In this document: piece by piece, positions 3,263 through 42,312 of the stretch | How the letters are laid out: the number at the start of each line of letters is the position of its first letter | Numbering within the stretch: position 1 is the first letter of the stretch | NCBI GenBank assembly: GCA_905178155.1 | Contig: CAJINV010000009.1 | Coordinates: 310,001-374,000, forward strand | Source of the DNA: Amoebophrya sp. A120 | Lineage: Eukaryota > Protista > Dinoflagellata | Direction of reading: 5' to 3' | Length of the DNA stretch: 64,000 bases | The notes under the pieces: generated by a model | Told to the model about the DNA's origin: nothing | Seen by the model: the letters and a program-made list of their open reading frames with translations, nothing else | Databases searched by the model: none | Program-made: the position numbers and the translations under genes

Positions 3263-4321
3263 ATGCCGGAAGCCGTCCAGACTTTGCTGACCGAGCAGCC
3301 GGATGTGGCCGCCGTCAAGGAAGAGGTCGCCACCCAAGACGACGTCATCGTCGAGGGTCCGGCTCCTACCAAGGAATTCAACGAAAAGAAGTTGAAAGTG
3401 GTATTCGAGTTATACGTTTTTTTGTGCGCGGCTCTTGCAGCTGCAGCTAGAGCAGCAGCTTTAATAGCGGATGAGTTGTTGCATTTGCACAGACAATCCC
3501 GGCACTTCTTTCTTGCCTTGATACTGTCTGGAAAAATTTAGATTCTCCAAACAACAATCCAAAACAGATCGTCAAGGAAGGTGGTAAGCGCGGTGTCGAG
3601 ATCGAGGGCGCAGCTGATATGGGTGGTCTCCAGTTTTTTTGCACGATGATCGAAAAGCCGGAGGGCGACCTGGACCTCCTGATCGAGTCGATGAAGGCCA
3701 TGAACGCCAAATCCAACCCGTCTGAGGAGGAGCGCAAAGGTAGCTAATATGTCTTTTTCGTGAAATTTCCCGCCGAGAGGTCCGTCTGTCTGTGCGCAAA
3801 TGTCTAGAACCACATAGAAGCTCGAGCTCCTACTCGTAATCCAAGCGTTCCCTTGATGCTGATCTCCGAAGTTTTTCATTCATTTTTGCTTCATTTTGCA
3901 TCGATCCTCTTCCGTGACGTCATCTTCAACCACGACGGTTTTCCTATAAAATCTTTCAGGTGGCGCCGGCAAGATCGGAAAGATCATTTTCTCCTGCACG
4001 GAGAAGGCTTTCTCCGCCGTGGCCTACGTTCCGAAGAACAAGGCCGACGAGTGCAGCGCCTTCGAGTGGCTGTCCGAAGTGGTGAACAACGTGGCTGGCG
4101 CGAAGGGCGTCAAGCTGGTGAAGACTTTCGACAACATCGAGTCCAAGTACTGGGCCGCGGTCTGCGTTCCGTTCTCCCACGAGGAGGAGCTCTACCCGAT
4201 CAAGATGCGCGACCCGGCGATCTCCCACGCGTACACATATTTGAAGAAGAAGGGCCTGTTCCCGGAGGACGACTCCGATGACGAAGACGACTACGTCTTC
4301 GGTGACGACGACTTCCCGTAA
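3263..4321 (+). CDS. Conserved hypothetical protein, 3 exons (3263-3400, 3568-3739, 3960-4321)
   Basis: GT-AG introns 3401-3567 and 3740-3959 join in frame: ...KKLKV|IVKEGGKRGVEIEGAADMGGLQFFCT...EEERKG|GAGKIGKIIFS... The protein ends in an acidic tail (DDSDDEDDYVFGDDDFP) and has strong C/G-ending codon bias. Confidence 0.85.
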
Positions 4322-5616
4322 ACTCTTTCCATCTACTCCAAGGGATGGAGCGACTGCATACATTACTTGCGGTCCACCTCGTCGTGAAAAAATGAGCAGC
4401 TACACTAGTTGATGTTCTGCGCACTTTTCACTAGTTGATGTTCTGTTCTTCACGATTGAAATATGTGGAGGAAAAACTCGTCTTTAGCTATTCTGCAATA
4501 ATCCACATTTTTCATTTTTCTGTTAGCATAATTCTATACGCGACACTGCGGCGTCATAATCCATGACGACGGGAGGTGCAATTGCTGTTATTTTAGATTC
4601 TTTGAGACCATTGCTTTTCGTACGGGAGGATAGCGAACGCGCGACTATCTTCACGACGAAACATGCACGATTGAAAGCTGGTTGTGGCAAAACCTCCTAG
4701 ACGGCATGAAAAAGTTCTACGATACTTATTCATACTGCGATGTATTGCCATGGCGGATGTGTCTGTGAAAAAATTGTGATAGTGTGGCGACATCTGTTGA
4801 AAGAAGGTATTTAGTACATATGCGCACGACGACTACGACTACCAGCGTTTTTTTCCTAGAAAAATGACAATGGCATACGTAACATACGTGCATTAGCATT
4901 CAACTATGACCTGCCTGCTACGATAATCCAAGATTTTGCAGTAATGTCCGAAAAGACCTTTTGCGCACATGAAAATTAAGAACGAAAAAAAGTTGAGGTT
5001 GCGACGCATTCCTGAGACTCAGAAGGGCGATTCTAACGCCGAGGATCAATGTGAAAGCCTCTCGTTAGACTTTGCGAAGGTCAAGATGGCGAAGCAGTCG
5101 GAAGCAGCTTTTCCAAAATCGCGTTCTCATTCTAGCTGGATCTCGATTGTATTTCCGCGCCATTTTTTTTTTGGATCCGGATCGTGCCATTTTGTTGGAT
5201 CTAGCTGCAGCGCCGTAGGATCATGTTTTTGCTTTCCTCTTCGTGTTTCTCTCTAGGCACACCAGCGCCCGCCGCTCTAACAGGTGCGGGCGCAGATCAT
5301 CTTCTTTTTCCTCTTCGGTCTAATCGTAAAGATCGTTGTCACGCGGCGGCCTGCCTTGGTTGTGGACATGTGTCCGCACCTTGTGACGCGTCCCTTTTCA
5401 TTTCGTCAATCTCGGTCGGTGCGTCATGGCTTTACATTTCCGGTACTGAAAAAATTCGTATTTGTCTTTTCTGGTGGCGATAGTGATTCGCACCAACCAT
5501 TTCTTAAAGAGTGTTTTACCGAGGACTCTTTAATTTTGAGACGCAGTTTGGGAAACTTCTAAGTCCACGAAAAAATAAACCTTGTTTCAAGTCCTTCTCT
5601 AGCAAGACAAAAACCG

Positions 5617-13600: not shown

Positions 13601-16600
13601 GGGAACGGGATGAAGCAGGCGGATTTGGAGTTTCAACGGGCGGTTTTCTTGAATCTCATCGACCTGGATGTTGTGAGTGCGGACGAAGATCATGACCAGG
13701 GTACTAAAAATGAAGACTCAAAAAATGCCGAGCACAGGATTTTGTTCCCGGAACACCAGGCAATTGTCTCTGCTGCTGCTGCTGCTGGCGGCGGTTCTGT
13801 TGTGGAAGAGAGTACAACTCCTTCGACTGGTCCCTCCGGGGAATTACTACTTGCAAGCAGAAGTCTTGCAGTTGCTGCATCGTCCAGCGCGACTGCCACC
13901 ACCACGGCGCCGCCCGACCGTTGCTGCTGCTGCCCAGGTTTTACTCCGATGACGGGAGGGCCGAGTGGTGGTGGTGGTGCCGCGCACCGTCGAACTGCGG
14001 TGAATACCGATGATGAAGATCCTGCAGCAGATGAAAGATCTCCTGGCGAGCTGATCCACTTCGGAACCGAGGGGAAGTACAGGGTTGAAACGCGGTTTCT
14101 CGCCGCTACGGCGGATGCGAAAACCAATCGCTGCGAGTGCGGGTCCGAACTGAAACGGCACATCGCCTGGACCGCGCCCTTGCACGAGTACCGAGTCTAC
14201 TTGAATGATACGTTCAACGACCCGATGATGCCGCACATGGGGTACTACCAGCCCAAACACAAGTTTCCCTACATGCAATCCGCGATTTTGGACACCCTGA
14301 TTTACCAAACGCGGTACCAGCTCATGCTGTTTCCGCCCGCGGTATCAAATGTAAAAATGTCTGGGTCTGGAAGAGTCCGAGACTTGTCATGCTGTTTTTG
14401 CATGACACAGAATGTCTGTCATGGAAGCCCTAGCATCACAGATTTTTAGAGGCCTTCCTGATGCCTATTCCGCATGACAAATGCCCTCCCCGCGTAGCAC
14501 AAACTGGGCTCCTCTTGCTGGTCATGCAATACAGACTTTTTTAGAGTCCAAAGTTAGCATCACAAGTTCCAACCTTCCAGACCCAGACATATTTGCAATG
14601 CATACGCGGCCTACAGCAGCAAGATTTCCGACCCGATGGCCTACAACCTGGACATGGACTTTATGGCGTTCTCAAATGTTACATTCTCAACTGTTACATA
14701 AATTTGCAATGCAAGAACGGCAAAAGTGAAAGGAGGAAGACTGCGCCTTTTGCATTACAGATCTGGCACAGATTTAGATGCTGTTGTGTTTAGCCCTTCG
14801 GATATTTGTCATGCGAAGCAGCTTAATCGTGGCGATCTTGGTGGCAAATTTCAGTTGAGAATGTAACAATTGAGAACGCCATGGACTTCACGCACGGCGG
14901 GTTCGGCCAGGACGCCCCGAAGGTCGTCGATTTGTACGACTGCGTGGACCGCGACCACCACGAAAGCTCCAGCTACGACGAACGGATCGATACGGAGGGC
15001 TACGACTTCCACGGGGAGAAGGTGTACGCGCGGTTTGCCAACACCGGCGGAACGCATTCCGGCCGCAACATCGAGGCCGACTGGTGGCGGATCGGGTGGG
15101 TGGATTTGCAGACGCACAAGGTAACGGTGTCCACCATGGTGTACACCCAGATGGCGGAGATCTTCACGAGTGTCGCCGTGGAATTTGAAATAGACGAAGC
15201 GGGGAACGTGATTGGGCTGACGCGGTTGATGTCCTACGTCGACTTGGACGACTACGGGACCAAGGGGTGGTTCATCTTCAGCAACGTCATGGTGATTGTT
15301 TTCGTCTCCATGGGCGTGGTGCACAGCGTGTATCTGATCACGTGCGGCACAAAGATGACGGTGTCGCTTTGGTACGAGCTGGCCAGTCGGGCGTTCATGT
15401 TGTTCTTCAACCTGTGGCTGCTCATCGGATTTCTGGGTATGTAAGAAATCAGAGATTTTTGTGTGGCTCTTCAAAGGTTCTTAGTACTTGATACTTTCAC
15501 CATTTTGCTGCACTTTGATCTGCTTGTAGAAAAACTAACATTAGGACAGCGATGCAAAATATGCAAAGTTGTCCTTGTTGGCCCGAAAAAAGCAAAATAA
15601 AAATTTGAAAAATCAGGTCTGAAGCCGATGAAGGAGGAATACAACGATTTGATGACGACTTTTTTCACCCTCCACGACTTTTCCTACAAGGGTTTGATTG
15701 GTTCGATCCAGCACTTTTTGGTCGTGAAGGACCACGTGTACGAGGAAAACGACTTGATTTTTCTGTATCGCAAAGTTGCGTTTGCGGTCACGTTGGTCTC
15801 TTTCCTGCAGATGATCCAGTACCTCAACGTCCACCCCCGCGTGGCGACCTTGACGTCCACCATTTTGAAGTCCATCGACGAGATGGCGCATTTTTTCATC
15901 GTGTTCGCGATCCTGTTATAGCGGCGGCAAAAGCTTATTTTTGCGAAAATTAAAAAAAATATTGGGTGGCTTTATCGTGGGCCTCGCAGCCCAGCCGAAT
16001 CATCACGCTTCTGGACTCAGGACGGCGTAAGACCCACGCCAGCGCAGCGCTTACCAAGTTTGCCCTGCCGTGCTGCCGCAAAGTCAAACACATCACACCA
16101 CCGCAGAACCCCTTTCAGAAGGCGCGAGAGGTCGCGTCAGCTTCAACGCTCGCGCACGCCAGGGCGGGCATCGTGGGCAGGGAGCCGGGTCCGTCGTTGA
16201 CCCCTAGACGGGCCAATCCTGCCAGGTCTGCGCCGCTCCAAATTTGGGCGGGGCAGGCGGCGGCCCGGCAGGCGCGGCCGAATCTGGCCAAGCCAAAGGC
16301 ACGGCGTGATATGGAATGGGCGAGCGCCTTGCGCCTCACCAGATGCCCCGGGGCCATGCTCCTGCGCCCCGGTTAGGCGGCATCATCGGGCGCAATGCCC
16401 ATCCCTGATTGCCCGGCGAGGTGCCGCAAAACCCCTCGGCTGCCGCCCACGACCCCTGCTCGGGCGACCGCAATTCCCCAATTGCGCGACGCCCACCCTG
16501 TTCAAGCAGCCCCATTTCTGCAAAGCGGGCAAAAGCGTGGCTCCATCCCAGCCAAGGCGCCTGCGGTTTGGTTACACCTTCCAAGCCACCCCCTAGCGCG

Positions 16601-19600
16601 CCTCCGCCAATTCGCGGGATTCCTTGCAAGAACTACCCGGCGGCATTTCGGATATCAATTTCGCGGAAAACAACCGCCCGGCGACACTGCCAGCACGCTT
16701 GGAGGCTAGAGCACAAGCGCCGCAGCCCTTGGCAGCACGGCGGGGCAACCGGGCCCCCCTTTTTGCAGGTGGGGAACTGATCAGGCGGCCCGCGCAAGGG
16801 GGGCCCGACCGCGGCGCGCCGTGCTCTAGCGGCCCCAACACGGGCGGACGGCAACCCGAAAAGCCCTCTCCGCTGACCGCCGTGCCTTGAGCCGATTTCC
16901 TGAAAAACAAACGGCGGAAAGCATTGGGCCTGGCGCCGCCGCCCCACTGTTTTCCCGGCCCGAGCCGAAGGCCACAGCGCTTGCGCAGTAGGTAAGGCGC
17001 AGAGGCGCGCGGCGCCCGGGCCCCTTTTAGAGGATGCCGAAAACACCAGGACCGCCACGGCCGCCTTACCCTTTCGGCGCGCCGCGCTGCCAACATAGCG
17101 AAGCCGGCCAGCCGGCAATGCAGGGCGGGCGCGGATCAATTTCCCGGGGAAAACACTGCCGGCATGCTGTGGGCCGTGCTTTTTGTCGCTGCTTTTCTTC
17201 GGCCAGACCGCGGGGCGCATGGCGCCAAAACCAGAAGCCAGCGCGCGTGGGGCGCCCGGATCGCCGGCGCTCTTGTTTGCCGGGGCAATCGGGGCCACGC
17301 TTCCGGGCAGCTGCGGAACCCCGCGGCCGTTGCGGAGTGCACGTGGGGCGCGTGCTGCGTGGCCGCCCTTGCCGCCGCTGCTTTCCCACTCTGGGGTCTC
17401 CTCGGCCCCCCCGGACGGGGGGGCCCGGATAGGGTCCTCAAAAGTGGCCCTAAGCAAGAGCGATCCCGCATGCTATGGACCCACTTTGGGGGGGTGCCTC
17501 TTTAGCCTCTCCCGGAAGGTGTTTCCAGTTGCCCGGCCCGCATTCCCGTTGGGAAGCCTCCCAGCCGAAGCTCCGTCGTAGCGACAGGCTTGCCACTTGG
17601 GTTCGGGCTGTTCGGCGCGCGCCGTTCCACGAAAACCTTGTCCATTTAAGGCGGCCAGCTTCCGGACTGTCGGAAGAGAGGGCCCAACAAGTTCGGCTCA
17701 GGTTGCTCCCCCTCCTATTGCTGCCGGCGCATGCTCGGGTGGGGGAGGGGTTTTCCCCCGTTTGGCGCGACCGGGCCCCCGGCGCTTCCCTGGGTTTCCG
17801 CGGGCGGGCGGGCTAGGGACACGACTCGGAGATAACACGCAGAAGGGGTGGGCGGCCGTTTCTTCGCGAGCAGGCGCCGCCTTCCTTGGCCGTGGGTGCG
17901 CATCTGCGTCGCCCTATCCTTGGCCCTCTTTGAAGGTGCCCGACTGGGCGCAGTCGGTCGGACTGGTCGAGCGGGTAGTGTTCGGCCACGTGCTTTGTCC
18001 CGATCCGAGTACGGCGCGGCAAAAAGGAAAGGGACAGGGCTGGCGGCGCTTTTGGCGGTCAATGAGGCCCTCCTGGCCTGGCTTACTCTGCGAACGCCCA
18101 CTGCCCTTGCGAGGCATAACGCACGCAGGAGAGGCAGCCCGCTTGGTGCCGTTTCATGCCCCCCAAAAAAAGGCAAAGGCCCCGCGCTTTGGGGGTGCGC
18201 CGGGCGGCGGGCATTCGGTCGGGCCAATCGCTCGCCACGCCCCCTCCAGGTGCCGGGGCGGGAGTGAAACCTGCGCAGCGACCAAGAGTTTCCGCCCCTC
18301 CAGCCCGGAGTTTGGTTGCGGTACTCCGGGAGCAGGCGCTCTGCCTCCCAGGTTTCAAAACGGGCGCGGCTTTTGGCCGCCGCGCGTTTCCGGGGCTTTT
18401 TTCATGTTCTCCAGCAAGTGCGGTGACCCTTTCGCGGCCCCTCTGAAACCCCGGCGCGCCAGGGATCGCCCCTCCAAGGGCCAGCCGCCAGAGCCGGTAG
18501 AAAAGCTGTAAGAGCCGCCGGGCGACGCTTCAGAAAGGCCTGCGGGAGGCGGAAAGCGCAAAACCCTAGCAGCCCGGGGCGCGTTCTTATTTTCTCGTGG
18601 CCATTGCTCGAGGCCTTTTCACAAGCCTGGCAAGGGAATGTTTCTCCTCGCCACATCTCCCCCGCCCATCCTGCTGCCCGGCGCGCTGCCAAAACACATA
18701 TGCGAGGCCACTGGCAAGCATGCCACCAGGGCCCGCGTGCCGGCGGCTCCACTACTATCGGCGCAGGTCTCGGCGGGGCATCGAGCCAGAGCCCGGGCCC
18801 GCGAGTGCAGTGCACTTCGTAAGGCCCAACCCCCCGGCCCTATCATTTCTGTCAACCAGGCGCCTGACCATCTTTTTCTCCGATCAATTCCAACCGCGGC
18901 TGCACAGGCGTCGCAGCCGAGCATGCTCGACACACGTTGCGATGGTAGTGCTCTTCGCGGCCAGTATCTATGACACCCAATGTTTTTTTTAATTTTCCAA
19001 AAAATAAGCTTTTGCCGCCACTATACCTGTTATGGATTGCAAAAATGTCTGGGTCTGGAAACTTGTAATGCTGCGTTGGGAATAATGAATGCTCTGTAAT
19101 GCATAGCCAAGCATGAGAAATATCTGTGCTGCTTTGTGTTGCATTTTTCGCATGACAGCCTGGGTTTTTGCATGACAGGCAAAAGTGCTTCTTCTTGGAC
19201 ACGCATCACAAACTTTTTGGTCATGCCAGGCAAGCACGACAAATCTCGCAATCTTCCAGACCCAGACACTTTTGCAATTCATACCTGTTCGTGGTGATGG
19301 CGTTCATCGGGCATTGGCAGTTCGCATCGATGCTGCCCGCGGACTTTGGGACCTTCGGCCGCGCCGTGGAGTGGCAGTTTCGGATGATCATCGGCGACTT
19401 CCCCTTCGACGGGTGGATCGAGTTGGACACCACGCAGCAGTTGATGTACTGGCTGTACCTGATATCCACAGTAAATTTCCCGTACACGACGTACAAATGC
19501 AGTCTCTGCACGACAAAACTTGCCTTCAATCCTAGTCTAGCATGACGAATTGGACACTGCAAGTTAGCGAAATTTGTCATGCATTTTGTACATGTACGAG

Positions 19601-20688
19601 AAATTTACATTGCATACCTGATTCTGTTCGCGCTCATCATGTTCCTGACCATGATGAACTTCTTCCTTGCGATCATCGTGGACGCTTTTGTGGAGGTGAA
19701 GCAGGACATCCACGACCAGAAGACGGAAAACTCCTTTCCCTTCGACTGCATGGACATGTTCAAGGACTGCTCCAAGTACTACACCACCCGGGGGTACCCG
19801 AACAGCCGCGAGGTGCTCGACGCCCTGAGCGAGGCGGACGAGCAGGACGAGATCGCGCGGCGCATTTACACGAAGGAGAAGAAAAAACACGATCCGGATT
19901 TTCACTACCCGGTCACCGCAAAGGACTTGGCTTCGTACAACCTGCGATCCATCGAAACGGAGGCGCAAGCGGTGGAGTTTCTAGTGCGGTACGGAATAAA
20001 AACGCCGGAAATCGTGTTTAGAACGAAGGTAGTATTTGAGTGGGAGCTTTTTTTTTTCAGGTTGTGAGATCGATAGATACTTATTGCTTCTTTGCACTTG
20101 TTTCACTTTTCAAGTATGGGAATTTGCAGCGGGACGTAGAACTAGAACCATTTTATCTTGCTCGCTATACAATTACAAAATATCTAGCGTGCGTTTTGAA
20201 CAAAACAAAATCAGGGTCTCATGGTATTCAAGAAGCTCTCTGAAATGGCGAAGCGCGACGCAGGAACGCTCTCCCCAGAGGCCCTTCAGGCCATCTACGA
20301 CGCCACGGACCAACGCGGGCAGCGCAAGCAGACCGGTGGCCGCCAGGTTTCTTCCAACTGGCGAAAAGTCATGGACCGTGTGGGCGGTGCGGACTTGCGA
20401 AGCTTGGCAGCAGCTGTATGAGATTGCACAACTCCCCCTCCCCCTCAATTGTATGGTATGAGCAGCAATTCAGACACCAGCTCAAATGGAGCCTGCGCAT
20501 GACAAACCTGCACACGGATTGTAGTTCTGTTTGTGGCTCCAAGATTTGTCATGCTAACTGTGCTTACAGACAAGATGTGGATTTGGGTTTTTGCATCACA
20601 AATGAGGGGGAGGGGGAGTTGTGCACTGTCATAAGCTGCAGCGGCCGGGGGCTCCTCCTCGCGAGCATATGAATACCAGGACGCCTAG
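10648..20688 (+). CDS. Polycystin-2/TRPP-like cation channel with a very large extracellular loop, interrupted by canonical introns and six TAT..ATA elements
   Basis: S1 is LNFFIYFLFFLVAIYIFY. Removing the elements gives a contiguous S4-S6 region: LQMIQYLNVHPRVATLTSTILKSIDEMAHFFIVFAIL|FVVMAFIGHWQF...FGTFGRAVEWQFRMIIGDFPFD...WLYL|ILFALIMFLTMMNFFLAIIVDAF. Putative GT-AG introns are 11368-11511, 13112-13181 (or -13142), 15437-15616 and 20029-20214. Stop is TAG at 20686-20688. Confidence 0.82.
14343..14604. mobile_element. Introner E1 (262 bp), 5-bp TSD CGCGG
   Basis: Ends are TATCAAATGTAAAAATGTCTGGGTCTGGAAG and CTTCCAGACCCAGACATATTTGCAATGCATA (TIR). CGCGG occurs at 14338-14342 and 14605-14609. 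Removal restores FPPA|AYSSK. Confidence 0.92.
14662..14883. mobile_element. Introner E2 (222 bp), 5-bp TSD GACTT
   Basis: TIR TATGGCGTTCTCAAATGTTACATTCTCAACTG / CAGTTGAGAATGTAACAATTGAGAACGCCATG. GACTT occurs at 14657-14661 and 14884-14888. Removal restores LDMDF|THGG. Confidence 0.9.
15917..19025. mobile_element. 3.1-kb TIR DNA transposon (TAT..ATA ends, 5-bp TSD CCTGT) inserted in a coding exon
   Basis: 52-bp TIRs at 15917-15968 and 18974-19025 (48/52 identical by eye). CCTGT occurs at 15912-15916 and 19026-19030. The interior is GC-rich and decayed. Confidence 0.92.
16150..17860 (-). pseudogene. Decayed hAT-superfamily transposase remnant (boundaries approximate)
   Basis: Minus-strand motifs occur in hAT order across frameshifts and a stop: PFCVL/SES (about 17830, DES-like); MDKVFVE...GKPVA/YDGAS (DGAS at 17566-17577); FRERLKRHPPKVGP*HAGSLLLRATFEDPI (CxxH-like region, about 17470); PRALASGFGAMRPAVWP (TRWxS-like, about 17240); SISRRAFGL...ADLAGLARLGVNDGP (ERxFS...LMRIxxNGP dimerisation-like, about 16190-16310). 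Confidence 0.6.
19031..19283. mobile_element. Introner E3 (253 bp), same family as E1 but in inverted orientation, TSD CCTGT
   Basis: TIR TATGGATTGCAAAAATGTCTGGGTCTGGAA / TTCCAGACCCAGACACTTTTGCAATTCATA. CCTGT occurs at 19026-19030 and 19284-19288. Confidence 0.92.
19463..19616. mobile_element. Introner E4 (154 bp), TSD CCTGA
   Basis: TIR TATCCACAGTAAATTTCCCGTACA / TGTACGAGAAATTTACATTGCATA. CCTGA occurs at 19458-19462 and 19617-19621. Removal restores WLYL|ILFAL (channel S6). Confidence 0.9.
20417..20633. mobile_element. Introner E5 (217 bp), TSD AGCTG
   Basis: TIR TATGAGATTGCACAACTCCCCCTCCCCCTCA / TGAGGGGGAGGGGGAGTTGTGCACTGTCATA. AGCTG occurs at 20412-20416 and 20634-20638. Confidence 0.92.
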
Positions 20689-28188: not shown

Positions 28189-30654
28189 ATGGCTGATGCA
28201 GCCGAAACTGGTGTTCGCGACAGCGCACTTGAGGAGGCATTCCGCAAAGACGCAGAGACGTTCGAGGACCACGTCGTCATTCCGGTTCGGAACGACGAGG
28301 AAAGATCTGCAACAGGGTCCCGGCAGCGCAGCCAGCCGAAGCAGCGCATCCGCAAGAAACCGTTTGGTGCGAAAAAAACACCCGCCGCCGCCCGAAACCA
28401 AGGCCGGGCTGCGAAGGTCGGTGTCGAAGACGAGGACGAAGATGATGAGGACGATGGCACGCCTGCCGTTGTTGGAGTTGGCGGGAATGATGATGAGTCG
28501 ATGCACCTGATACCAAAAGAAGCAGAGGACATTGATACCGACGTTGTCCAGCAGGAGGAACAAGCCCATGACGCAGCTTTGCAGGCACGGCGCGAGCGCG
28601 CAAACAGGCGAAAGCAGCATTTGCGACAGGAGATGGAAGAGAGAAAGCGTGGCGCCGGTGGTGGCGCTCCCAGCATTGTCCGAGATGGAACTCCTGCTAA
28701 TGCTCTAGCAAATAAAGGTATTAGTGCCAGTGGACGAACAACTCTGGACGATGAAAGGGAGCCAGATATCGCTGACTTTATCAACGTGGCGGAAGAGGAC
28801 GAGGACGCGGGTTTTCCCATCACAGGAACTTCAAACACCACCCCGACGCAGGTTCAGCAAGGAGCGCTTTCCACTTCCAGCAAACGCCGCACGAGCCGAA
28901 GGCCCGCGGAGGGGGAAACGCCCGCCGAGCTGCTTGCCGCCGGCAGCCGCAAAAAGCAGCACATGCAGGGTCACGGGATGAATATGAAAGGGTCCTCGTC
29001 GTCGAAGCACCACGGATCAAAGGGTGGAAAGGGGTCGAAATACGGGCAGTTTGTTGACCAAGCACCGGAAAGAAATGAGTTCATGCAGCTGTTTGACCAG
29101 GCGGCAACACAGGGGTACCAGCCTCCAGAAAAGGAGAATGACATGCGGTTGTTGCAGCTCCCGGCGGGCACGAAAGAGAAGCGGCTGTCGATGATACGCA
29201 CCGGACAGCACCCGGATCTCTTCTCCAGCGGCGGGGGACCGTTTTCCATGGAGCTAGGGCACGATCAAGACGATTACGGCGGGGCTGCTGGCGTTGGAGG
29301 TGTGCAGGGCGGCGGCCTGGAGTCCAACTTGATGTCCGCCGGACCGGGGGGCGCCGGGCAGCTCGGCGTGAACAAGTTGCAGGCCGTCGAAGATAAGGCG
29401 GATGAGGCGGAGCGCAACGCGCCGTCGGTCGTGGAGAAGGTGGGGGCCTGGTTCGGGAACCTGTTTGGGGGTGGGGGCGGGGAGGAGGAGAAGAAGGAAG
29501 AGAAGAAACCGCTTGTCCCCGGGGCGAAGAAGAAGCCGGAGAAGCCCGGGCGCGGTCACCGGAAGGAGCAGCAGATCCACTCCGTCCACGCCAGCGTGCA
29601 CCTGGAGGGGGAGCTGAAAATGAAAAAAACGTTTTTCGACCACGAAATGGCGATCCCCGCGAACGATTCCTACATTCTGCGGGTGTCCAGCCGGTTCACG
29701 CCGAACGGGACGGATGTCGCGTTTTACGCGGATCAGTACACGCGCAGTCTGCTGCATTTCGAGCTCTCGAACCGCGGGGCGGAGCTGCGGCTGGGCCCCG
29801 GCCAGGGGGTGTTGTCCATGTTCAAAGAGGGGGAAAGCTCGCTCCTCACGACGCCGGCGGACTCCGCTGTATCATCCGCGCGGTCCACACAGTCCATTTC
29901 CGGTGTTCGCGGCACCCAGGGAGGAAGTATACGTTCACATCAATCCACCATGATGAACCGGTCATCGATGCGGAGAAGTGCGGTCGCTGGGCCGCCGATA
30001 AGCTTCGAGACGCCCGAAGCAGTGGCGTTACTCGATTTCGTCTCCTCCAGCTACTCGGAGCGGGCCACCACGCCGAAGGCCCCGCCGAACGTGGTGAACA
30101 ACCGCTACCTCGCCCGGTGGAACCACGAGAACGTGGCGTACTTTCTCCCGAACCAGCCGCTGGTGAACCTGGCGTGCTTCGATTTCGGCACCAACAAGCC
30201 GTATTTCCGACTGCAGAACGTGCAGTTCAACCCGAAACTCGCGAATTACCAGATTCTCGAGCCGGGCTGCTGCGCGTGCGGGAGCGGGCCGTCTTTTGAG
30301 GAGATCGAGGACGAGCGGCACAGTCGAACCTGGCTCTTCCACTGCGCCATTGTGGACTGCGGCTCGCAGTACTTCGATTTCGACGACCAGTACGGGCAGC
30401 GGCAGCAGTTTCCGGTCATCGGCCAACTGGTGTGTTGCAACGACGTGGAAACGAGGGTGGACGATCCGCTGTTGAACGAGGACTACCTGCGAACCCTGAT
30501 GTCCGTGGAGGCGAAGCGACTGCAAAAGATGCACTGCATGCGCAAGACTGGGTACGAAATGCACGTCGCGCTGGAGGACCCCACCGACGGAAACTGCGCC
30601 GCAGCCTGCACGTTCTTCGCCCTCTACCTGCTCCTCAGGTGTCAACAGTGGTAA
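28189..30654 (+). CDS. Hypothetical protein (about 820 aa): disordered N-terminus, globular Cys-containing C-terminal domain
   Basis: Long ORF with coding-type codon bias; ATG at 28189 follows AAAACA. No family recognised. Confidence 0.75.
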   Translation: MADAAETGVRDSALEEAFRKDAETFEDHVVIPVRNDEERSATGSRQRSQPKQRIRKKPFGAKKTPAAARNQGRAAKVGVEDEDEDDEDDGTPAVVGVGGNDDESMHLIPKEAEDIDTDVVQQEEQAHDAALQARRERANRRKQHLRQEMEERKRGAGGGAPSIVRDGTPANALANKGISASGRTTLDDEREPDIADFINVAEEDEDAGFPITGTSNTTPTQVQQGALSTSSKRRTSRRPAEGETPAELLAAGSRKKQHMQGHGMNMKGSSSSKHHGSKGGKGSKYGQFVDQAPERNEFMQLFDQAATQGYQPPEKENDMRLLQLPAGTKEKRLSMIRTGQHPDLFSSGGGPFSMELGHDQDDYGGAAGVGGVQGGGLESNLMSAGPGGAGQLGVNKLQAVEDKADEAERNAPSVVEKVGAWFGNLFGGGGGEEEKKEEKKPLVPGAKKKPEKPGRGHRKEQQIHSVHASVHLEGELKMKKTFFDHEMAIPANDSYILRVSSRFTPNGTDVAFYADQYTRSLLHFELSNRGAELRLGPGQGVLSMFKEGESSLLTTPADSAVSSARSTQSISGVRGTQGGSIRSHQSTMMNRSSMRRSAVAGPPISFETPEAVALLDFVSSSYSERATTPKAPPNVVNNRYLARWNHENVAYFLPNQPLVNLACFDFGTNKPYFRLQNVQFNPKLANYQILEPGCCACGSGPSFEEIEDERHSRTWLFHCAIVDCGSQYFDFDDQYGQRQQFPVIGQLVCCNDVETRVDDPLLNEDYLRTLMSVEAKRLQKMHCMRKTGYEMHVALEDPTDGNCAAACTFFALYLLLRCQQW

Positions 30655-31331
30655 GTAGAAGGTGGTGAGCAGACACTTGTCGCGCTCCTGGATACGACTC
30701 GTGTTTGGAACATGTATTCCGTAACTCTTGCTCAAGCTCCTCAAGGTCAAGAGTACGTACTACTGAAATCCCGACTACTTCGAACGCCGTGCAAAATTTT
30801 TGTGCCGGTGTGCCTGGCCTCGGCTTGTTTGTAACAATTGTACGTGTACTTTGAATTTGAATGATTTGTAGCAAGGAACGAAATAAATTTATGTATTTTT
30901 CACGAAGAAACGATTTTGTACTTGTAGCCAAAGGGGAACGAACATTGTTCCGGATTAAAAAAGGAGAGTTTGGCTGCTGTTCCGTCGGTAGCTCTGTGTG
31001 AGCGTAAGTACCGAACATGTAGCACTTATTCCAAATCCAGTTCCAAAACTAAATCTGCTTCGTCGTCGTTGGGTCCAGCTTGCTTCAGAGTGCTGGTTCG
31101 GTGTACTCTTTCTCCCGCTCCTCAGGCTAAATCAAAAACGAATCGGGTCCTGGGTTGTGTGAAGAATATCAATGAACAGTAGGCCGAAGATCCGGGGGGC
31201 GAGAACGATGTGCATCAAAAAGGGGTTTCAAAGAGAGGTGATCACATCAAAACCAAAAGCGTTAACCTTCTGAAGAAATAAACATTCGATCTTCCGAGAT
31301 TAGTATACGCTAACGAAAAAGATACCCGATC

Positions 31332-32672
31332 ATGCCAGCTTCAGGTTCCTCAAGTTTTTTTTGCTGTGGTGGGGGAGCATCGAGCTCCAAACGCCACGGT
31401 GCGAGCGATTCAGCGGCAGACTCAGGTCAAAAGCGCCAGCGACAGTCTGGCTCCCAGTCGAACCCAGAAGACGGAGAAGGAGAAGGCCAGGACGAGGCGG
31501 AACAGATGACGTACCAGTGCCGCCCCGCCGCGTCCTGCCATCTGCATTACGCATTTGGACCGATGCCGGAGCTGCTTTCAGGAGGAGCAAATACGACCGA
31601 CGTCGCGGTTGAGGTAGGAGCAGGAGAGCAAGACGAGGAAAGCAAGGCCGGTAACAGCACGAGTACGGCTCCAGTGGTTCTAGACACGAAGCCGAAAAAC
31701 CTGGAGATGGCCCTGTTGCAGTCCGTCACCGTCGAGCATTCCGCTCGTTGCACCTACTTCTGTGTGGTGCAGTTCCCACCTGCCGGCTACTGTGGGATCC
31801 AAGAGCGCGAGAACGGTGAGAAGATTGCCATTTTCTCGGTCTGGGACCAGCGGGAGGGGGACGTGGCAGTGGTGAACGCGGGCCCGTCGGTGTATTCCGA
31901 GCCCTTCGGTGGCGAGGGTACCGGCCAGAAGTTGTGGCGGCATTTCGGATGGCAGATTGGCGAGGTTGTGACCTTCTGCGTCCGCGTCATGACCGAAGAA
32001 GACGACCTGAGCATGTGGCGATTCTCGTGCGACGTGCTCACGGTCGTCGTCGAGAGAGATATGGCGTCGATCGAAGCGACACAAAGAGAAACAGAACCAA
32101 GCCCAAGTGCGAACGCAACGAGTCGGTTGGTAGACGAAGCGGGCAACGCCGTTCCGGAGGACCAATTAGCGAAGGAGGCGCTGGACGATTTCGAGAGGAG
32201 CACCGCAAGTGGCGAGACGTCCGGAAGGAACAAGGACCCGGGCGGAAATAAAACGAAGTACAAGATCCACCCCATGGGGACGTTACGTGTCAAGTGCACC
32301 GCTGCGGCGGTCAATGGCTTTTCCTCCTTTGTTGAGGACTACGACCGAGTGCCGAACGCAAGTGGCCTGTTCTGTTCGCGCAAAGCCCATTTCGGCGGCG
32401 AACCGAAGTGGTGGGTAAGGACGAAGAAGAGTGTCGCGGGTGCTGAGGGTGCTGGTATTGATGCTGTTACTGGGCCCTTTTTTCAGCAACGAAAACTGAA
32501 AAAAGTCTCGTTTACGAAATGCAGCCAGGCTGCGGAGGCGGAGGGGGCGACGACGAGATGTTGTGGGGTAGCGAATGGCGGTCTAAGCTACTGCTTGGAG
32601 ACCGGAGGAAGTGAAGCCTTTTCGCAAGTCACAGAAACTGAAAAAACGTTGTTTCAGAGGACGCCTCCGTGA
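31332..32672 (+). CDS. DUF3472/DUF5077-like domain protein (446 aa)
   Basis: Motif series TYFCVVQF..GYCGIQE....KIAIFSVWD...FGGEGTG.K....FGWQIGE...F.V...FSSFVEDY. Confidence 0.7.
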   Translation: MPASGSSSFFCCGGGASSSKRHGASDSAADSGQKRQRQSGSQSNPEDGEGEGQDEAEQMTYQCRPAASCHLHYAFGPMPELLSGGANTTDVAVEVGAGEQDEESKAGNSTSTAPVVLDTKPKNLEMALLQSVTVEHSARCTYFCVVQFPPAGYCGIQERENGEKIAIFSVWDQREGDVAVVNAGPSVYSEPFGGEGTGQKLWRHFGWQIGEVVTFCVRVMTEEDDLSMWRFSCDVLTVVVERDMASIEATQRETEPSPSANATSRLVDEAGNAVPEDQLAKEALDDFERSTASGETSGRNKDPGGNKTKYKIHPMGTLRVKCTAAAVNGFSSFVEDYDRVPNASGLFCSRKAHFGGEPKWWVRTKKSVAGAEGAGIDAVTGPFFQQRKLKKVSFTKCSQAAEAEGATTRCCGVANGGLSYCLETGGSEAFSQVTETEKTLFQRTPP

Positions 32673-33075
32673 ACTTGAATCCGAGAAACAAAAGGAAACG
32701 CCTTGTTGAGGATTCCGCAATCTTCAACAAATCACATTTTTTCTCGGAGTTGGACCACCTAGATTCATTTTGTTGATGGTTGGCTGCAACCGCGTTTGTG
32801 TTTGTAACACGAACGATATTCGAGGAATTGTGTGATAGATATTGATTGCTAGTTGTCGTGCCGCTTGGCTCCGGGTTCAATTGCAATTTGTACGAACAAG
32901 AAAGATGTGATTGTGATGAGAGGGGTGGAATCCTATTTCGCTAAAAGAACTACATCGACATGGCGCTGCCAGGACAACCACAAAAGCAAAGCGATTTTTG
33001 AGTTGTCGAGGGATAACTAAAGAGTGTTGCACTTGTTTGCGTTGTGTGAACTCTATTAGAACTTCTATCAGAAGG

Positions 33076-34659
33076 ATGTTGTATGTGCCTATGATTGGGA
33101 CTGGCACCGCCCCTCTGTTCGCGCGTCGTTCCGCAGCGGGAACGAGAGCAGTGCCTTGTCCTCGTCTTTTTGCTTCGGTCGTGGAAATCAAGCAGAAGCG
33201 TTTCCCGGCAACGACGAATGAGGAGTATGACAAGAGGCGACAAGTATTCTTCTCTCGAGCAGAGGGGCTCCACTATTTCTGTCGCGAGATAACCGCTGTC
33301 GCGCCCGAGCTTCGTTTCCGTGGGTTGCCCGGCCACTTCGGCCAGCATGCTCTTTTTCGTGTTGCGACATCAAATTCCACCGACGAAATTTCACCTGCTG
33401 ACAACGGGAATACTAGTAGCGAACCCCTCTGGCGGGTGGTGTCTCTGCGGACGTCAGACCGCGAGGGTGAAGTTCGTCGGGGTCGGACCAGACTAAGGTT
33501 TTCCTACTGCAGGAATGTTCACGGCGTACCTCAAGTTTACGTACATACGGGCTTCGCGAAGCTTTTCACATCTGAAAATGTGCCGATCAATACGAAGCCA
33601 CGCGATCTTGCGTTCAGCGTTCACGATGACGGGCAAAGCGCTGAGTCAATCGCTGATATGCTTCGGCAGGACTGGTTGACACAACCCCAGTTTTCTCCTC
33701 GTGATTGGTTCATACGAATTGCGAGCAGACAGCGTAACATCTCGAGTCTCCGCATTTACAATCAGATGCTTCTGGAGGCTGAAGAAAAATTGTACACGCC
33801 CGCTGGTCTGGAGTTAACCTTCCCGCTCGGCCACAGAGATGTCCGTCACAATAGTTTGATTGGTGGACTCCGTGTGCTACACCGCACTGCCGAATTTCGT
33901 ACGGGGATTCGAACTCGCAGAATTCGCTTTGCTTCGTGTCAGGGAAGCGCACGTGAACGTCCTCTGACTCTCCCCGAACTACAAACCATTGACTTCGTGT
34001 GCGCGTTCCATGGCGATGAACTCACGGGGCAACTTCGTGGAATGTACATTTTTCCAAAAGATGTCATCGCGCACGAGCTGGGCATTCATGCCACAAATAC
34101 CGTTACTGGAAACGAGGATAGCCGCTTAGTATCTGCATGTGAAGACCGCGAGAAAATTCAAAGTGATTCAGATCGTGGTGAGATGCGTCAGCAGTTATCG
34201 TTATCGAAAAGGTTCTTGATTGTGGAACCTCCAACACGCACTGACCTTTCGAATGAATTTCAATCCACGACGACTGATACGCCAGCTCCCAGAAGCAGTG
34301 TGAAAGGCTGGCAAATGGATTACTACGTAAATGTTGAGGACGAGTTCCAGCGTAGAACCAACATTGAAAAAGCACGCCGCCTTTTTCGAAGTCCCTCATT
34401 TGATGGTTGTACGACGATGCAACGTAGCAGAATCGGGCCCTTCTCACAATCTCGATGTGTCGAAATAAAACGGTACGGCAATGAATTGTTCTGCGAGAGA
34501 GTGTTCTGTTTTGCTGGCCTCCGCCTTTGTGGAGACGCGATCACGGTTTTCAATTTGTTCTTGTCGTCGGACCTTGAGATACATGTAAAGAGGCACGGGA
34601 CCTCAAATAGAAAGGGAAAGGCACAGAAATGCGATCGCGCAGACGGATCGGTGATCTAG
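33076..34659 (+). CDS. Hypothetical protein, possibly organelle-targeted
   Basis: ORF of more than 500 codons with an Arg-rich, acid-poor N-terminus. No family recognised. Confidence 0.55.
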   Translation: MLYVPMIGTGTAPLFARRSAAGTRAVPCPRLFASVVEIKQKRFPATTNEEYDKRRQVFFSRAEGLHYFCREITAVAPELRFRGLPGHFGQHALFRVATSNSTDEISPADNGNTSSEPLWRVVSLRTSDREGEVRRGRTRLRFSYCRNVHGVPQVYVHTGFAKLFTSENVPINTKPRDLAFSVHDDGQSAESIADMLRQDWLTQPQFSPRDWFIRIASRQRNISSLRIYNQMLLEAEEKLYTPAGLELTFPLGHRDVRHNSLIGGLRVLHRTAEFRTGIRTRRIRFASCQGSARERPLTLPELQTIDFVCAFHGDELTGQLRGMYIFPKDVIAHELGIHATNTVTGNEDSRLVSACEDREKIQSDSDRGEMRQQLSLSKRFLIVEPPTRTDLSNEFQSTTTDTPAPRSSVKGWQMDYYVNVEDEFQRRTNIEKARRLFRSPSFDGCTTMQRSRIGPFSQSRCVEIKRYGNELFCERVFCFAGLRLCGDAITVFNLFLSSDLEIHVKRHGTSNRKGKAQKCDRADGSVI

Positions 34660-34709
34660 ATCGCAGTGTGGGTCAGACTCAGAATCTAGTTTTGTTGTGA
34701 GGAAAAAAG

Positions 34710-37130
34710 ATGTTCATGTTAATTGATTTGCTGCCACTTCTAGTGGGTCTGGGCTCTCTTTTACTGAATGCGTGTGGAAGCGCAGCCTCCATCAGCAAAG
34801 TTGGTCGGGAACAAGAGGAATCGTCTCGCCACGACAGCATCGCTCCTTCACATACCTGTACCTGGTGCCCCTCCATCATCGGTCTCGGGAACCAAAAAAC
34901 CGGCACCACCGCTGTCGCGCACGCGGTGAATTTTCTCTTGCAGGAGGTGGGAAAATGGAAGAGCGAGGACATTTCGCTTCTCGTGGACCCACCAGAGATC
35001 GACTTCATCCGGCAACATCGGGGGAGGACAAATTTTTCGCACCCGTTGAGCGACTGGGAGATCTGTGCGAGGTTGCGCCAGGCGAGAAGGCGCGACGACC
35101 GGCGGCTTGGGAGGGAGGATAGCCTCGCGGAACTGGATGCTACTCGTCGGGATAAAGCAAAGGAAAGCCTGGTGCTCGTGAAAAGAACAGAAGAAACTGA
35201 ACGAACAAAAGCTCCTTCAACGCCAGCCCAAGACGAAAATGTTGAGCAACATCTAACAATTTTGAAGGTCCCCTCCATTCTCCCGCACCTTCCCCGGTTC
35301 CAGCAGGTCTGTCCCTCAAGCAAATTCTACCACGTGATCCGCTCGCCCTTGCAGAACACGCGCTCCCTGCTCGACCGCCTGGCTCACCTTGGCGGGGACG
35401 CGCAGAAACAGACCATGGCGGGCACACTGATGACGCTGCTGTTACATGACAAGCGACCGGATTTGTGGCAGCAGTACATTGCGAAGACGAACCTGAACGA
35501 CCAAACGGCCGTGATGGAAGAGGCCTGGGAAGAGGTGATGAACGAGCCACTGGAGCCGCAGCTTTTGATATCCGTCGGCATTGACCCGGAGCGCCTTAGA
35601 CGGGTGCGCATGGAGCAGCAGAGACGCGACGAAGAGGAAGAGAAAAGCGTCGGAGGTGGTGGAAGTAGTGCCCCTGCAGCTCGAGAGGGGACGTCGTCGC
35701 AACAAGTGGAGCTGCATGACGGGCAAGGTGTGAAACTTGTGGGAAAAACCACCGCAACGTCAGAGGTAGAGTCCGAAGACTACCTGCAAGATCACAAGAC
35801 CGAGCGGAAGCGGCACCAAGTCGACATTATGACGCAGTACGATCTACGGGACGTGCAGCTGCGGTTTGACCTGGAACACCAGGGCCGGATGCGGTGGGAA
35901 AGCTTTGTGAAGAAATTTGCGGAGCGGCACCTCGGGAAATCGAAGTCCGGGGCGGAGAACTGCCGCTTGTACCACGATTTGTTACTCAACATTGAACACG
36001 AAACCTGGCACGCCATCGTCAACGAAACGAGGCAACAGATTTCGCTCCTGGCGAGTGGAGATAGGTGGCGTGGTGTTGTTTCTCCAGGGCTTGATGTTGT
36101 TGATACAGATGGTGCAGGAGGACGAGTTGCTGTTACCGATCTTCACCTAGGTAGGTCACCGGAAGGGGAGCGAGAAGGCACTGTCGTGGCGCTAAAACAA
36201 AAGAATGTGCCCCAGAACTCCTGCGTCGCCGGGTTCGTATCAAGATGGATTGATTTTGCGCTTCCGCTCGTGGAGGCAGCTTCCGGAGAATTGACTCCAA
36301 CGTCAGCGGCCTCTGCTGCCCCTGCCTCTGCATCCGTGTACGCGCAACTGCAAACACGTCGGAAGTCAGGACCAGGATCACAGGCAAATCAAGCCCACGA
36401 TGACGAAAAGGGAGATGAGACGACACAGAGAGAGGCCCTGGGACTCCGACTCCGGCCGGAAGTAAGGGTGCTGCAGCCGCTTCTCGAATCGCCACCTGAA
36501 GCTGCTGGAGGAGAAGGAGAGTCTTCAGCTTTTAGAGGAGCAAGCTCTACTATTCCGGTCCTCCGCTACGAAGACTTTCGAAAGTTTCCAGGCGAGAGTA
36601 TCGTTGCGCTGGTTAATGCTTTAGGGATCAAGACAAGGCCCGAGAACAACTACATGGACCATACTAGCGACCACCCCAAAGATTTTAAAAATCGGACCTT
36701 TTCGATCCAAGCCGCGCGCGAGTCCGACTCGTTCCAACACGCTGCGCGAATTCAACTGCAGCCGCGGGGCTGGGGACACGGAAAGTCCTTGTCGCAGATT
36801 TTTTCGCGATCGGACTGCCGAAACTTCTTCGGGCAGGAAGGTAGAATAATACGAAACCAAAAAGGCGTAGATATTGAACGTTTACCCGTAAAAATACAGC
36901 CTCTCACAAGTAGTGGTAGATCAAACACACTACAGCATAGCAGGAAAAGGAGCTACGATTTTGGCACTATTGGTGAACTGTTGCAATCGATTGCGCCACT
37001 CTTTGGATACTTTCCTGGTATTGACGACAACGGTTTTTGTGTGGAAAAAGTAGTCGAATATTCTTCTAGAGCTAATCTGGTGCTGCACGCAACCACGACG
37101 CCTACAAGCGTGTTCGTGGATGTGCTTTAA
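34710..37130 (+). CDS. Sulfotransferase-like protein with signal peptide/anchor (806 aa)
   Basis: Hydrophobic N-terminus, 5'-PSB-like IIGLGNQKTGTTAV, 3'-PB-like FYHVIRSPLQNTRS, and VLRYEDF. Confidence 0.72.
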   Translation: MFMLIDLLPLLVGLGSLLLNACGSAASISKVGREQEESSRHDSIAPSHTCTWCPSIIGLGNQKTGTTAVAHAVNFLLQEVGKWKSEDISLLVDPPEIDFIRQHRGRTNFSHPLSDWEICARLRQARRRDDRRLGREDSLAELDATRRDKAKESLVLVKRTEETERTKAPSTPAQDENVEQHLTILKVPSILPHLPRFQQVCPSSKFYHVIRSPLQNTRSLLDRLAHLGGDAQKQTMAGTLMTLLLHDKRPDLWQQYIAKTNLNDQTAVMEEAWEEVMNEPLEPQLLISVGIDPERLRRVRMEQQRRDEEEEKSVGGGGSSAPAAREGTSSQQVELHDGQGVKLVGKTTATSEVESEDYLQDHKTERKRHQVDIMTQYDLRDVQLRFDLEHQGRMRWESFVKKFAERHLGKSKSGAENCRLYHDLLLNIEHETWHAIVNETRQQISLLASGDRWRGVVSPGLDVVDTDGAGGRVAVTDLHLGRSPEGEREGTVVALKQKNVPQNSCVAGFVSRWIDFALPLVEAASGELTPTSAASAAPASASVYAQLQTRRKSGPGSQANQAHDDEKGDETTQREALGLRLRPEVRVLQPLLESPPEAAGGEGESSAFRGASSTIPVLRYEDFRKFPGESIVALVNALGIKTRPENNYMDHTSDHPKDFKNRTFSIQAARESDSFQHAARIQLQPRGWGHGKSLSQIFSRSDCRNFFGQEGRIIRNQKGVDIERLPVKIQPLTSSGRSNTLQHSRKRSYDFGTIGELLQSIAPLFGYFPGIDDNGFCVEKVVEYSSRANLVLHATTTPTSVFVDVL

Positions 37131-37417
37131 AAGTATTTATCTAGAACGTGCGGGCACGGTGTTGCAAAAGTACTTAGTTGCGAAGCGGGAAGATACATCA
37201 TAGAGCTGGAGTTGTGGGAGAGCTGATTTTGTTGCTCATCATCTTGGCTTTGAGTGTGATCGCTTTGTTTCTTGTTGTGCGATTTGTTTGAGGAGCAGGG
37301 TGAGATTGGAATTGTTGGTTAATGAATGCATGGAGCGGGTGGACGAGATTTGTCATTGTCGCCACTGCAGAACTAGGACTAGCTCCGTCTGGTATTGCGC
37401 GCCATCCGAGCAAAGGC

Positions 37418-38400
37418 ATGTCGTCTAGTGCCATTGCACCTAACTCCACTTCTGCTGAGACAACTGACGTTAGCATGTCGTCCCGGCCTCAAGTCGAAAG
37501 CGGAGCAGGACAAGAGCAGCTCCCCGTGCCCTCCGGATCGATGGCAGTCGAAGCGGAGGAAGGTGGCGCGTCGGCCTCCGGAGTAGTGGTGGACTCCTCT
37601 ACTACTGCTGCGAACGATCCGGCACCGGCAACGGATGGACAAGCCTGCAACGTGGGGGAGAAGAAACTATCTTCACAGCAGGCAACCGGTGCAGGTCCTG
37701 GCGCAAAAACTTCTTCTAAGACCGGGTCGACAAAATCGCCAACGCCTAGTAGTGGTTCCTCCTCCAGTAGTTCCTCCACCGGAGCAGCAGGGGGCGCAAC
37801 CAGCCACCCGGAGGTTCAGGAAGAAGACCGCATGGTGGTAGAGCAGGACCCGGGGAGAATAGAAGATCCGGCAGCTGGTGGTGGCGCGGCAGCGACCACA
37901 ACTTCCGCGAACCAGATCAAGACTCCTGCTCAGTCCTCAAGCCAGCCGCCCGCGTCAGCGGAACCGGTCGCACACATCAAAACCTTTGTGCACACCGGGC
38001 CCAGCAGTGTGGGCATGTCGAACGACAACAGGCCAGTGCTGAATTTGGGTCTGTCATTCAAGCTGCCGATTAACGAGCTCTTCGACGCGATCTGCAGGTG
38101 ATGGATTTTTCGGATCTTTGTTTTTCAACCTGGAGTATGAGTGGGAAGGAAATGGCATTCATATGGATGCAAAGAAAATGTATTTCGTTGAGAACGCAAA
38201 TGCAAACGCGAACGCGCAAAATCTATGATCAACTGAAATCGAAACTTAGGTACCAAGATCGACTTGATGCAGAGGAGCAAGAGCTGCGATCGGCGCACAG
38301 CATCACCGCACCTCCGTCCTCCACGGTTGGGGCCGATGCAGCTGCGGCAACCAGCTTGGCAAGTGAAAACGGGGCTGTTGGGCCAGACGTGCTGAGCTAG
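37418..38400 (+). CDS. Low-complexity hypothetical protein, 2 exons (37418-38097, 38250-38400)
   Basis: GT-AG intron 38098-38249 joins DAICR|YQDRLDAEEQE in frame. Confidence 0.6.
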
Positions 38401-40999: not shown

Positions 41000-42312
41000 T
41001 GAAGACATGTCGATGGTGTAGACGTAGCCTCTGCATTTGTCTTCCATGTGATTTTTTTAGCAGATCGGATTACTACAATCGCCACTGGGTTTATCGTGGG
41101 GGTGCAACTGCTTTCTCCATCTCCGGTAGCGTAAGTCGTGCCGGACTAAAGTAGTCGTGTCATTCAAAGGTCGTGAAAACAAGGACAGGAGATGATATTC
41201 GAGGGGAGCCTCACTCTTTGTGGAGGCAAGAGCGCCTTCTTCAATAGGGTGAACTTTACAAAAGCGACAAACCATCAATGAAACACCGCACAAGCATAAG
41301 AGTTATCTTGAAAGGTGAACTGGAAAACTTCGCTTTTCGCGTACATCCTTCTTTTCGTGACGGGAAAAGCAAGATGAAAGGGTACCGGAGAGAATAGAGT
41401 CACCTGAGTTCTTGCAGCTGCACATGATCCCAGACCTTGTCGCGATAAAAAAAACAAAAATGAGAGGCTCGTTGAGAAGCTCCGAAAATGTAAGCAGGTA
41501 GACAAATCGATCCACCACTTCGATCCTCTCTGAAGATCTGTGGGTAATTAGGATACACGACAAGATCTCCTCCGAAGAATTCTGCTGTGCTAGATCTTCA
41601 CGAAATGTTGAAAATACGCGATCAAGCACGATGGCACAACGCAGCCTTTCTTGAGATCATTGCTGCTTCTCGGTAAAAAAAATCGATCACCAAAAAGAAC
41701 ACGTTCTGATGTCGTGGGCTCATTGTCCGGGCCCCTTCGCTCGCAATAAATCGTCGTTCGTCACTTGTTAGGCTCGTTTGTATTTGTAGCAACAGTTCAA
41801 TAGGAGCTGTAGCGATTTTTCGTTCTTCTTTCGCATCACTCACAGCAGAGCAATCAGAATCATTCAACTGAAGTTGCAAACTTTTCGTGGTAAAGCTAGC
41901 CTTAACGCTTATCTTTTGACGACCCCATTGCTAGCATCGAGCGTTTAATTATTGTATAAGCTTCTTCGTTAACCCTTTGCCCCCTTCAACTTCTTTATCC
42001 CCGCATGCTGGCAGAAGCGGAATAGGCGTTGTGATGACCACTTCAAGAGCGGATTCCTTTGTAGACGAAGACAAGGTTTTTACGTATTCCACCACCCTCG
42101 CTGCGTTGTTCATCGTGCTTTCTATTCTCTGTATTTCGACGCTGTCCCCCTCGCTAGAAGACGAATTTCTCCACTTTACCGACCTCGTCATTGCCACTCT
42201 TATCAACAAGGAGCTCAACTAAACGCAAAGAAACTAACATTCTGAATTGCTATATTTGCCTACTTTATATCGCATTTCCGTCCCCGAGCTTTATTGTCTT
42301 GGCAAAAAAATC

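Follow-up and report, generated by a model that had tools for sequence, protein, structure and literature searches.

Two TAT-ended elements between three copies of CCTGT in a polycystin-like gene of Amoebophrya sp. A120

How does a coding exon come to hold two different introner-like elements back to back, and how are both removed from its message? The question arises in a stretch of 64,000 nucleotides (nt) from Amoebophrya sp. A120 (contig CAJINV010000009.1, positions 310,001 to 374,000; "the window" is this whole stretch). Here a 3.1-kb element (A) and a 253-nt introner (B) lie within a polycystin-like cation-channel gene, flanked and separated by three copies of CCTGT, which we treat as target-site duplications (TSDs). 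A reading of the letters alone (the sequence-only reading) had taken this for two insertions at one site, with the second targeted to the end of the first, and had proposed that the elements leave the transcript by two back-to-back excisions, like recursive splicing or a twintron. On balance, we think that the stack probably consists of two non-autonomous TAT-ended transposons of different families, which came to share one 5-bp target by chance and site preference and are excised separately, each on its own hairpin, in either order.

A transcript that lacks both elements

The host gene has a PKD_channel match on one exon (E = 4e-4, below the curated cut-off). Joining its exons at the observed joints gives a stretch of 1,024 amino acids without stops. 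The best homologue, P0001 from Amoebophrya sp. AT5.2, is 76% identical over half of the query, and its peptide FAIL/FVVMAF (the slash marks the insertion point) is unbroken. CCTGT is frequent overall, with 46 copies on the plus strand of the window. Each of the three copies at the stack directly adjoins the end of a terminal inverted repeat (TIR), as is the case for the TSDs of all eight TAT-ended elements that we scanned, and all three stand at the positions that had been read. Of five removal variants that we translated, the upstream frame runs on through FAIL/FVVMAF only in the one without A, B, and two of the TSDs. This agrees with the earlier statement that the frame is restored only when both elements and two TSD copies are gone.

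A message of this kind is present. A 9,442-nt contig from run X3 (depth 53.6, with no mismatches in the seven pieces listed) joins 15911 to 19284, and the 3,372 nt that it skips are A, B, and two TSDs. The same contig also skips two GT-AG introns and four other TAT introners. (X3 is RNA by guess, as no run is recorded as RNA; we treat it as cDNA because the two GT-AG introns are skipped exactly.) Thus, an mRNA that spans the site with both elements gone exists, as the sequence-only reading required. The splicing evidence is one contig from one run, and the presence of A in those cells is deduced from sequence identity. The raw RNA runs X8, X9, and X10 yielded 138, 1, and 1 partial reads, all on B-like ends, which are uninformative on this gene.

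The boundaries do not have the form of a GT-AG intron. None of the seven possible cut registers for A, or for A and B together, has GT and AG at its boundaries, and neither does any of the eight registers for B. Register 3 starts with GT but ends with CT, and no register ends in AG. In the exon-A-B-exon sequence, the cognate arm is the best partner for all four TIR arms (-37.8, -37.8, -46.1, and -46.5 kcal/mol, from arm-versus-window duplexes), and the terminal stem of B also forms in a local minimum-free-energy fold. The sequence-only reading held that the outer TIRs cannot pair beyond TAT/ATA. They can, because the outer ends share a GCAAAAG heptamer that gives a 7-bp helix, out of register with the termini. 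This pairing of the 5' end of A with the 3' end of B is weak (-8.7 kcal/mol): of 56 non-cognate pairs, 31 do as well or better at 30 nt and 13 at 20 nt.

With three identical TSDs, loss of A plus one TSD turns the site into exon-CCTGT-B-CCTGT-exon, and loss of B plus one TSD gives the equivalent with A; neither order is therefore required. Also, as a single-introner substrate remains in either case, the stack costs the host little. Two hairpin-guided cuts would be the most likely path of removal, with each element leaving on its own terminal hairpin and either one going first. What stands of the earlier claim about removal is that A, B, and two TSDs are missing from the mature message. Ordered back-to-back excision in the manner of recursive splicing or a twintron was overstated: whichever element goes first, a normal substrate remains; A and B have no AG/GT ratchet point between them; they are adjacent, each with both of its TIR arms intact; and one outer cut would produce the same mRNA.

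One further observation concerns a neighbouring introner of the gene (14662-14883), which has a mismatched terminal base (TAT...ATG). The X3 contig skips it all the same, so removal does not depend on a perfect ATA end.

Table 1. Features at the CCTGT stack and beside it (positions in the window)
Feature	Position	Strand	Details
Upstream coding exon, polycystin-like gene	15617..15911	+	After GT-AG intron 15437-15616; X3 joint 15435 to 15616, GT..AG; PKD_channel match; P0001
TSD copy 1 (CCTGT)	15912..15916	+	
Element A, TAT...ATA TIR element, low-copy family, non-coding	15917..19025	.	3,109 nt, 65% GC
Left TIR arm of A, 52 nt	15917..15968	+	
Right TIR arm of A, 52 nt	18974..19025	-	Identical in the L001 copy
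TSD copy 2 (CCTGT), common to A and B; zero net mRNA contribution	19026..19030	+	X6 contig 18881-19057
Element B, TAT...ATA introner, high-copy family	19031..19283	.	253 nt, 43% GC; TIR arms 19031-19065 and 19249-19283
TSD copy 3 (CCTGT)	19284..19288	+	
Downstream coding exon	19289..19457	+	X3 piece 19284-19455; joint 19455 to 19615
Next TAT introner, ends the downstream exon	19463-19616		TSD CCTGA

The two elements and their junctions in DNA

Introners of A120 have been described as having an inverted repeat that starts with TAT, followed by seven variable nt and then at least three As, with a direct repeat of 3-5 nt at the exon/intron boundaries (PMC7789003, Farhat et al. 2021; this and the other papers cited for comparison are represented by the parts available to us). 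B fits this motif exactly, with TAT, seven nt, and an A-run, and its 35-nt TIR arms are 89% complementary. A starts with TAT, nine nt, and then AAAA, an offset of 2 nt, and its 52-nt arms are 92% complementary. Both elements show cognate TIR pairing, a 5-nt direct repeat, and the TAT-plus-A-run, and both are repeated in the genome; removal from mRNA without GT-AG boundaries is seen for the A and B pair at the X3 joint.

The two families differ in abundance. Summed contig depth suggests about 4-5 copies of A (368.5 vs 41.3, with a TIR position counted at both ends) and, being very high for B, on the order of a thousand B-like ends, but the tool warns that this sum is not a copy number. Relatives of B include a 253-nt one in contig JACKZZ010011530.1 (L001) and another at 14343-14604 of the window. 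Contigs of the interior of A match the window with no differences at single-copy depth, and diverged copies are also present (in X1, X2, and X3 and in L001). The copy in L001 is 94.6% identical over 538 nt. It lies at 4246-5045, inside the 3' TIR of an introner related to that at 40259-40565 of the window and about 43 nt short of where the 3' end of this host is expected; the contig stops inside A. We considered using TIR mismatches as a clock and dropped this because the right TIR of A is identical in the L001 copy.

A is a long non-autonomous element without detectable coding capacity. Pfam gave no match in any of its six read-through frames and none under E = 0.09 for the 17 open reading frames (ORFs) in or overlapping A and B. 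GC content by codon position is flat in A (0.655/0.654/0.652), in contrast to an exon (0.868/0.522/0.368), and the longest ORF (309 amino acids) was matched or exceeded in 33-50% of 200 Markov simulations. Differences between copies of A are spread evenly over the codon positions: 13/14/10 in one comparison (37 of 47 shown), 8/12/9 in another (29 shown), and 10/10/9 with L001 (all 29). A comparison with the Atlas gave a best score of 0.78, and Rfam had no matches in 15500-19500. On the lack of Pfam matches, the flat codon GC, and the simulation-like ORF lengths, we rejected the reading of A as an autonomous element.

Two observations on the copies of A stand apart from this. Substitutions set the copies apart at about 5% of positions, and indels are nearly absent (47 substitutions and no gaps in 922 nt with X3; 29 and none in 538 nt with L001). 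This pattern, which also shows no codon periodicity, may reflect a length constraint or a mutational mode in a non-coding GC-rich element. Also, X3 includes a 996-nt contig of another copy of A (matching 15916-16837 of the window, depth 13.8), which suggests that some copy is transcribed or retained, or that DNA was carried over. As for B, joints at single-copy depth in X1 and X2 (17059 to 19031 and 18887 to 19031; unverified) hint at B-like ends inside other A-like copies, and another X1 contig has two B-like ends only 37 nt apart.

Is the stack real in DNA? We examined contigs from X1, X2, X6, and X7, which are DNA-like runs of one sample. As they are possibly the source of the assembly, they address misassembly and are not independent. 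(The kind of X1 and X2 is not on record; we take them as DNA-like because the GT-AG intron is read through.) For these runs, 32 of 18,151 contig pieces and 15 of 21 joints were shown, and we counted a junction as bridged if 31 nt were aligned beyond it. The junction of exon and A is bridged by three contigs, those of X1 and X2 with 44 nt in A and that of X6 with 40. The X1 and X2 contig runs for 1,108 nt from the upstream intron into A with no differences (depths 41.3 and 25); in both runs it is unbranched and at the depth of the unique interior of A (42-44 in X1). The A-CCTGT-B junction is spanned by one X6 contig of low depth (18881-19057, depth 6, one mismatch, four gaps) that extends 32 nt past the end of A and 27 nt into B. 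The junction of B and exon is covered by one X6 contig (19255-19480) with 29 aligned nt in B, 2 below our rule. Thus, of the junctions that the sequence-only reading wanted confirmed in raw long reads, that of exon and A is fully bridged, and the other two are supported marginally, each by a single low-depth X6 contig. No empty-site joint was seen among the 15 joints shown.

Origin of the stack and alternative readings

Insertion of both elements at the same site would be the simplest origin. The geometry equals the signature of a double insertion: the junction spacer has the length of a TSD and is identical to both outer flanks. The earlier statement that the second insertion used the TSD of the first is probably right. 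Different families share this geometry, as our scan of the window found eight TAT-ended TIR elements at seven target sites, all with an exact 5-bp TSD. We propose that one kind of transposase with a 5-bp stagger would have mobilized both A and B in trans (for which a Ginger/TDD-like enzyme is a lead), and that the second insertion would reuse a TSD copy of the first, by chance and ordinary site preference.

As to where these elements lie, six of the eight are in the polycystin-like gene (14343-20633), which amounts to strongly clustered insertion or retention. Two neighbouring targets in this region start with CCTG.

How many such stacks should arise by chance? We considered a model without targeting (N^2/L), based on published A120 counts and uniform insertion: 115.5 Mb and 66,565 introns at 1.42 per kb, which corresponds to about 47 Mb of coding sequence (PMC7789003). 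It gives 8-41 exact stacks for 29,850-44,000 elements, and 0.9-64 over all eight settings. The chance is about 1% where a gene carries 6 insertions over 3,072 nt of coding sequence. As several to tens of stacks are expected at random, a scan of many windows should meet some without targeting. The earlier claim of targeting to existing element ends does not follow from this locus: one site is insufficient, the model without targeting predicts such stacks, and double insertion by site preference is documented (McGurk and Barbash, 10.1101/158386).

Several points weigh against our preferred account. The null model rests on published A120 counts and assumes uniform insertion. Under this model, the probability that the rare (5-copy) family A would land exactly on an existing TSD is 0.3-1.2%, and the location of the other copy of A with a visible flank, inside the 3' TIR of another introner in L001, hints at a bias to introner ends. 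Turning to removal, X3 (RNA-like) and the DNA-like runs come from different samples, and the two-cut path was not directly observed. (The 15 of 16 X3 joints shown include none that is A-only or B-only; contigs drop rare variants, hence this is no evidence.) Also, two spliced introners of the gene have weak 20-nt end pairing (-11.1 and -10.1), near that of the outer pair, so strong terminal pairing may not be required.

This last point bears on a less likely alternative, removal in one step, in which the inner hairpins draw the 5' end of A near the 3' end of B and a single outer cut skips the middle CCTGT like a 5-nt microexon. Such a cut gives exactly the observed mRNA at any of the seven registers, the outer ends have TAT/ATA in common as well as the 7-bp GCAAAAG helix, and weakly paired introners of the same gene are spliced. 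Nevertheless, that helix is out of register with the termini, the cognate stems are stronger than it by about 30 kcal/mol, and at 30 nt the median non-cognate pair is at least as good. If instead the X3 transcript came from cells without A (or without both elements), then A could be an unspliced, gene-breaking, or culture-specific insertion. The X3 study as well as its sample differs from that of X1, X2, X6, and X7, X3 has no contig across the junction of exon and A, and, given cut-and-paste movement, the 5% divergence of A from other copies does not date the insertion at this site. We consider this improbable because X3 matches the window without mismatches in its listed pieces, which is consistent with the same strain, because the contig across exon and A is unbranched at the depth of the unique interior of A and no empty-site joint is among the 15 of 21 shown, and because the reading frame flanking the stack is intact. 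It is likewise improbable that an A-allele and a B-allele of one hot spot were joined by microhomology recombination via the 5-bp TSD, or that the A-B junction is an assembly join. Recombination between such alleles does yield the same triple TSD, and the marginal contigs at the A-B and B-exon junctions leave room for a join, but a homology of 5 bp is very short and one site must still have been hit twice, while an assembly join is not expected to make a third exact TSD and the X6 contig crosses the junction with one mismatch.

The remaining alternatives concern how the second element found its site. That a transposase, or the structure of the DNA at TIR ends, steers insertions to the TSDs or ends of resident introners, as a safe-haven strategy, seems to us rather unlikely. 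Both copies of A with a visible flank do touch another introner end (at 0 nt here, and in L001 some 43 nt in from the 3' end), a 273-nt hairpin element lies 29 nt from the 3' end of the TAT introner at 51102-51568, and the null probability for family A is low. However, only one of these three cases is exact and they were picked after the fact; in hosts of 200-300 nt, chance alone often puts an insertion no more than 43 nt from an end; six of the eight TAT elements in the window are not stacked; and the unverified joints to 19031 hint at B-like ends in A-like interiors. An unlikely extension of this idea is that introners home to resident TSDs and form multi-family stacks in exons, which non-spliceosomal, hairpin-reading machinery resolves as order-free, zero-exon double excisions, even with a 3.1-kb non-coding element. 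If true, this would be a self-tolerating safe-haven insertion strategy and a new form of recursive RNA processing.

The introner at 51102-51568 is of separate interest. This TAT...ATA introner, whose family also occurs at 3238-3388 of L001, carries a nested, near-perfect 273-nt hairpin element (51267-51539) that has a 3-bp CTA duplication and lies inside the TIR of its host, and the 5-bp flanks of the host no longer match. It is a candidate for a true nested, twintron-like arrangement.

Relation to known systems and significance

The two elements resemble A120-type introners in their TAT TIRs with an A-run, the direct repeat at the boundary, their repetition in the genome, the removal without GT-AG, and the lack of a transposase. 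They differ in that two families share one target with a triple TSD, and in that the 3,372 nt removed are outside the 40-1000 nt range of introns kept in the A120 survey (PMC7789003). The supplement of a later study lists low-copy TIR introners of 0.6-1.6 kb (58 of 58 A120 rows) and labels A120 family 38 as "Ginger, 5-bp TSD, TA/TA termini" (PMC12130899, Gozashti et al. 2025). The TIR motifs of A and B were absent from the 12 of its 14 supplementary files that we searched, so neither was matched to a named family.

Tandem dimers of transposable elements are known to form by double insertion (P element, jockey, R1); they have been put down to site preference, as insertion preserves and duplicates the target (10.1101/158386). 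As here, the junction spacer of these dimers has the length of a TSD and equals the outer flanks. Those dimers are of a single family, whereas our stack has two families inside a coding exon, both spliced out. Introners of Micromonas are also found inserted in or merged with other introners, but these are spliceosomal-type introns (Verhelst et al. 2013, PMC3879977). Zero-nucleotide recursive splicing (10.1101/006163) and stwintrons (PMC8469720) are similar in that a long stretch can be removed stepwise without a net exon and the first cut regenerates a boundary. In contrast to those systems, the stack has no AG/GT ratchet, removal is not bound to an order, and the signals of each element are left unbroken by the other. 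Finally, Ginger2/TDD elements are TIR elements of similar size, with a 4-bp TSD that in TDD-4/5 is 5 bp long, as here, but their termini are TGTNR (PMC2836005) rather than the TAT at all four ends of A and B. The link to Ginger2/TDD is therefore only a lead. We found no integrase-like transposase in A (by Pfam, six frames, ORF statistics, or the Atlas).

Our searches, together with a word search in the available parts of PMC7789003, PMC12130899, PMC9860276, and PMC11282704, found no published introner stack with two families at the same site, a triple TSD, and removal from mRNA. The words "nested", "twintron", and "tandem" did not occur where we searched PMC7789003 and PMC12130899. In looking for further flanks of A and B, viral scans gave three chance matches and two blanks. 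Bacterial and archaeal scans were empty for P0001 and otherwise turned up a single match of 27 nt, in a bacterial contig.

Amoebophrya has to clear tens of thousands of non-GT-AG introns from its transcripts, apparently with no U1 snRNA, and joining of the exon ends by a hairpin has been proposed for its introners (PMC7789003). The stack indicates that removal extends to an insert of 3.4 kb, whereas the original survey stopped at 1 kb; long and composite introners have thus probably been undercounted. It also allows two models to be told apart on a single molecule. Cutting guided by hairpins would give A-only and B-only intermediates, with A and B excised separately, while cutting defined by end motifs or by the exons would give one 3.37-kb product. 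The insertion geometry itself is ordinary and can be explained by known processes; the value of the stack is as a natural test of hairpin-defined versus end-defined splicing.

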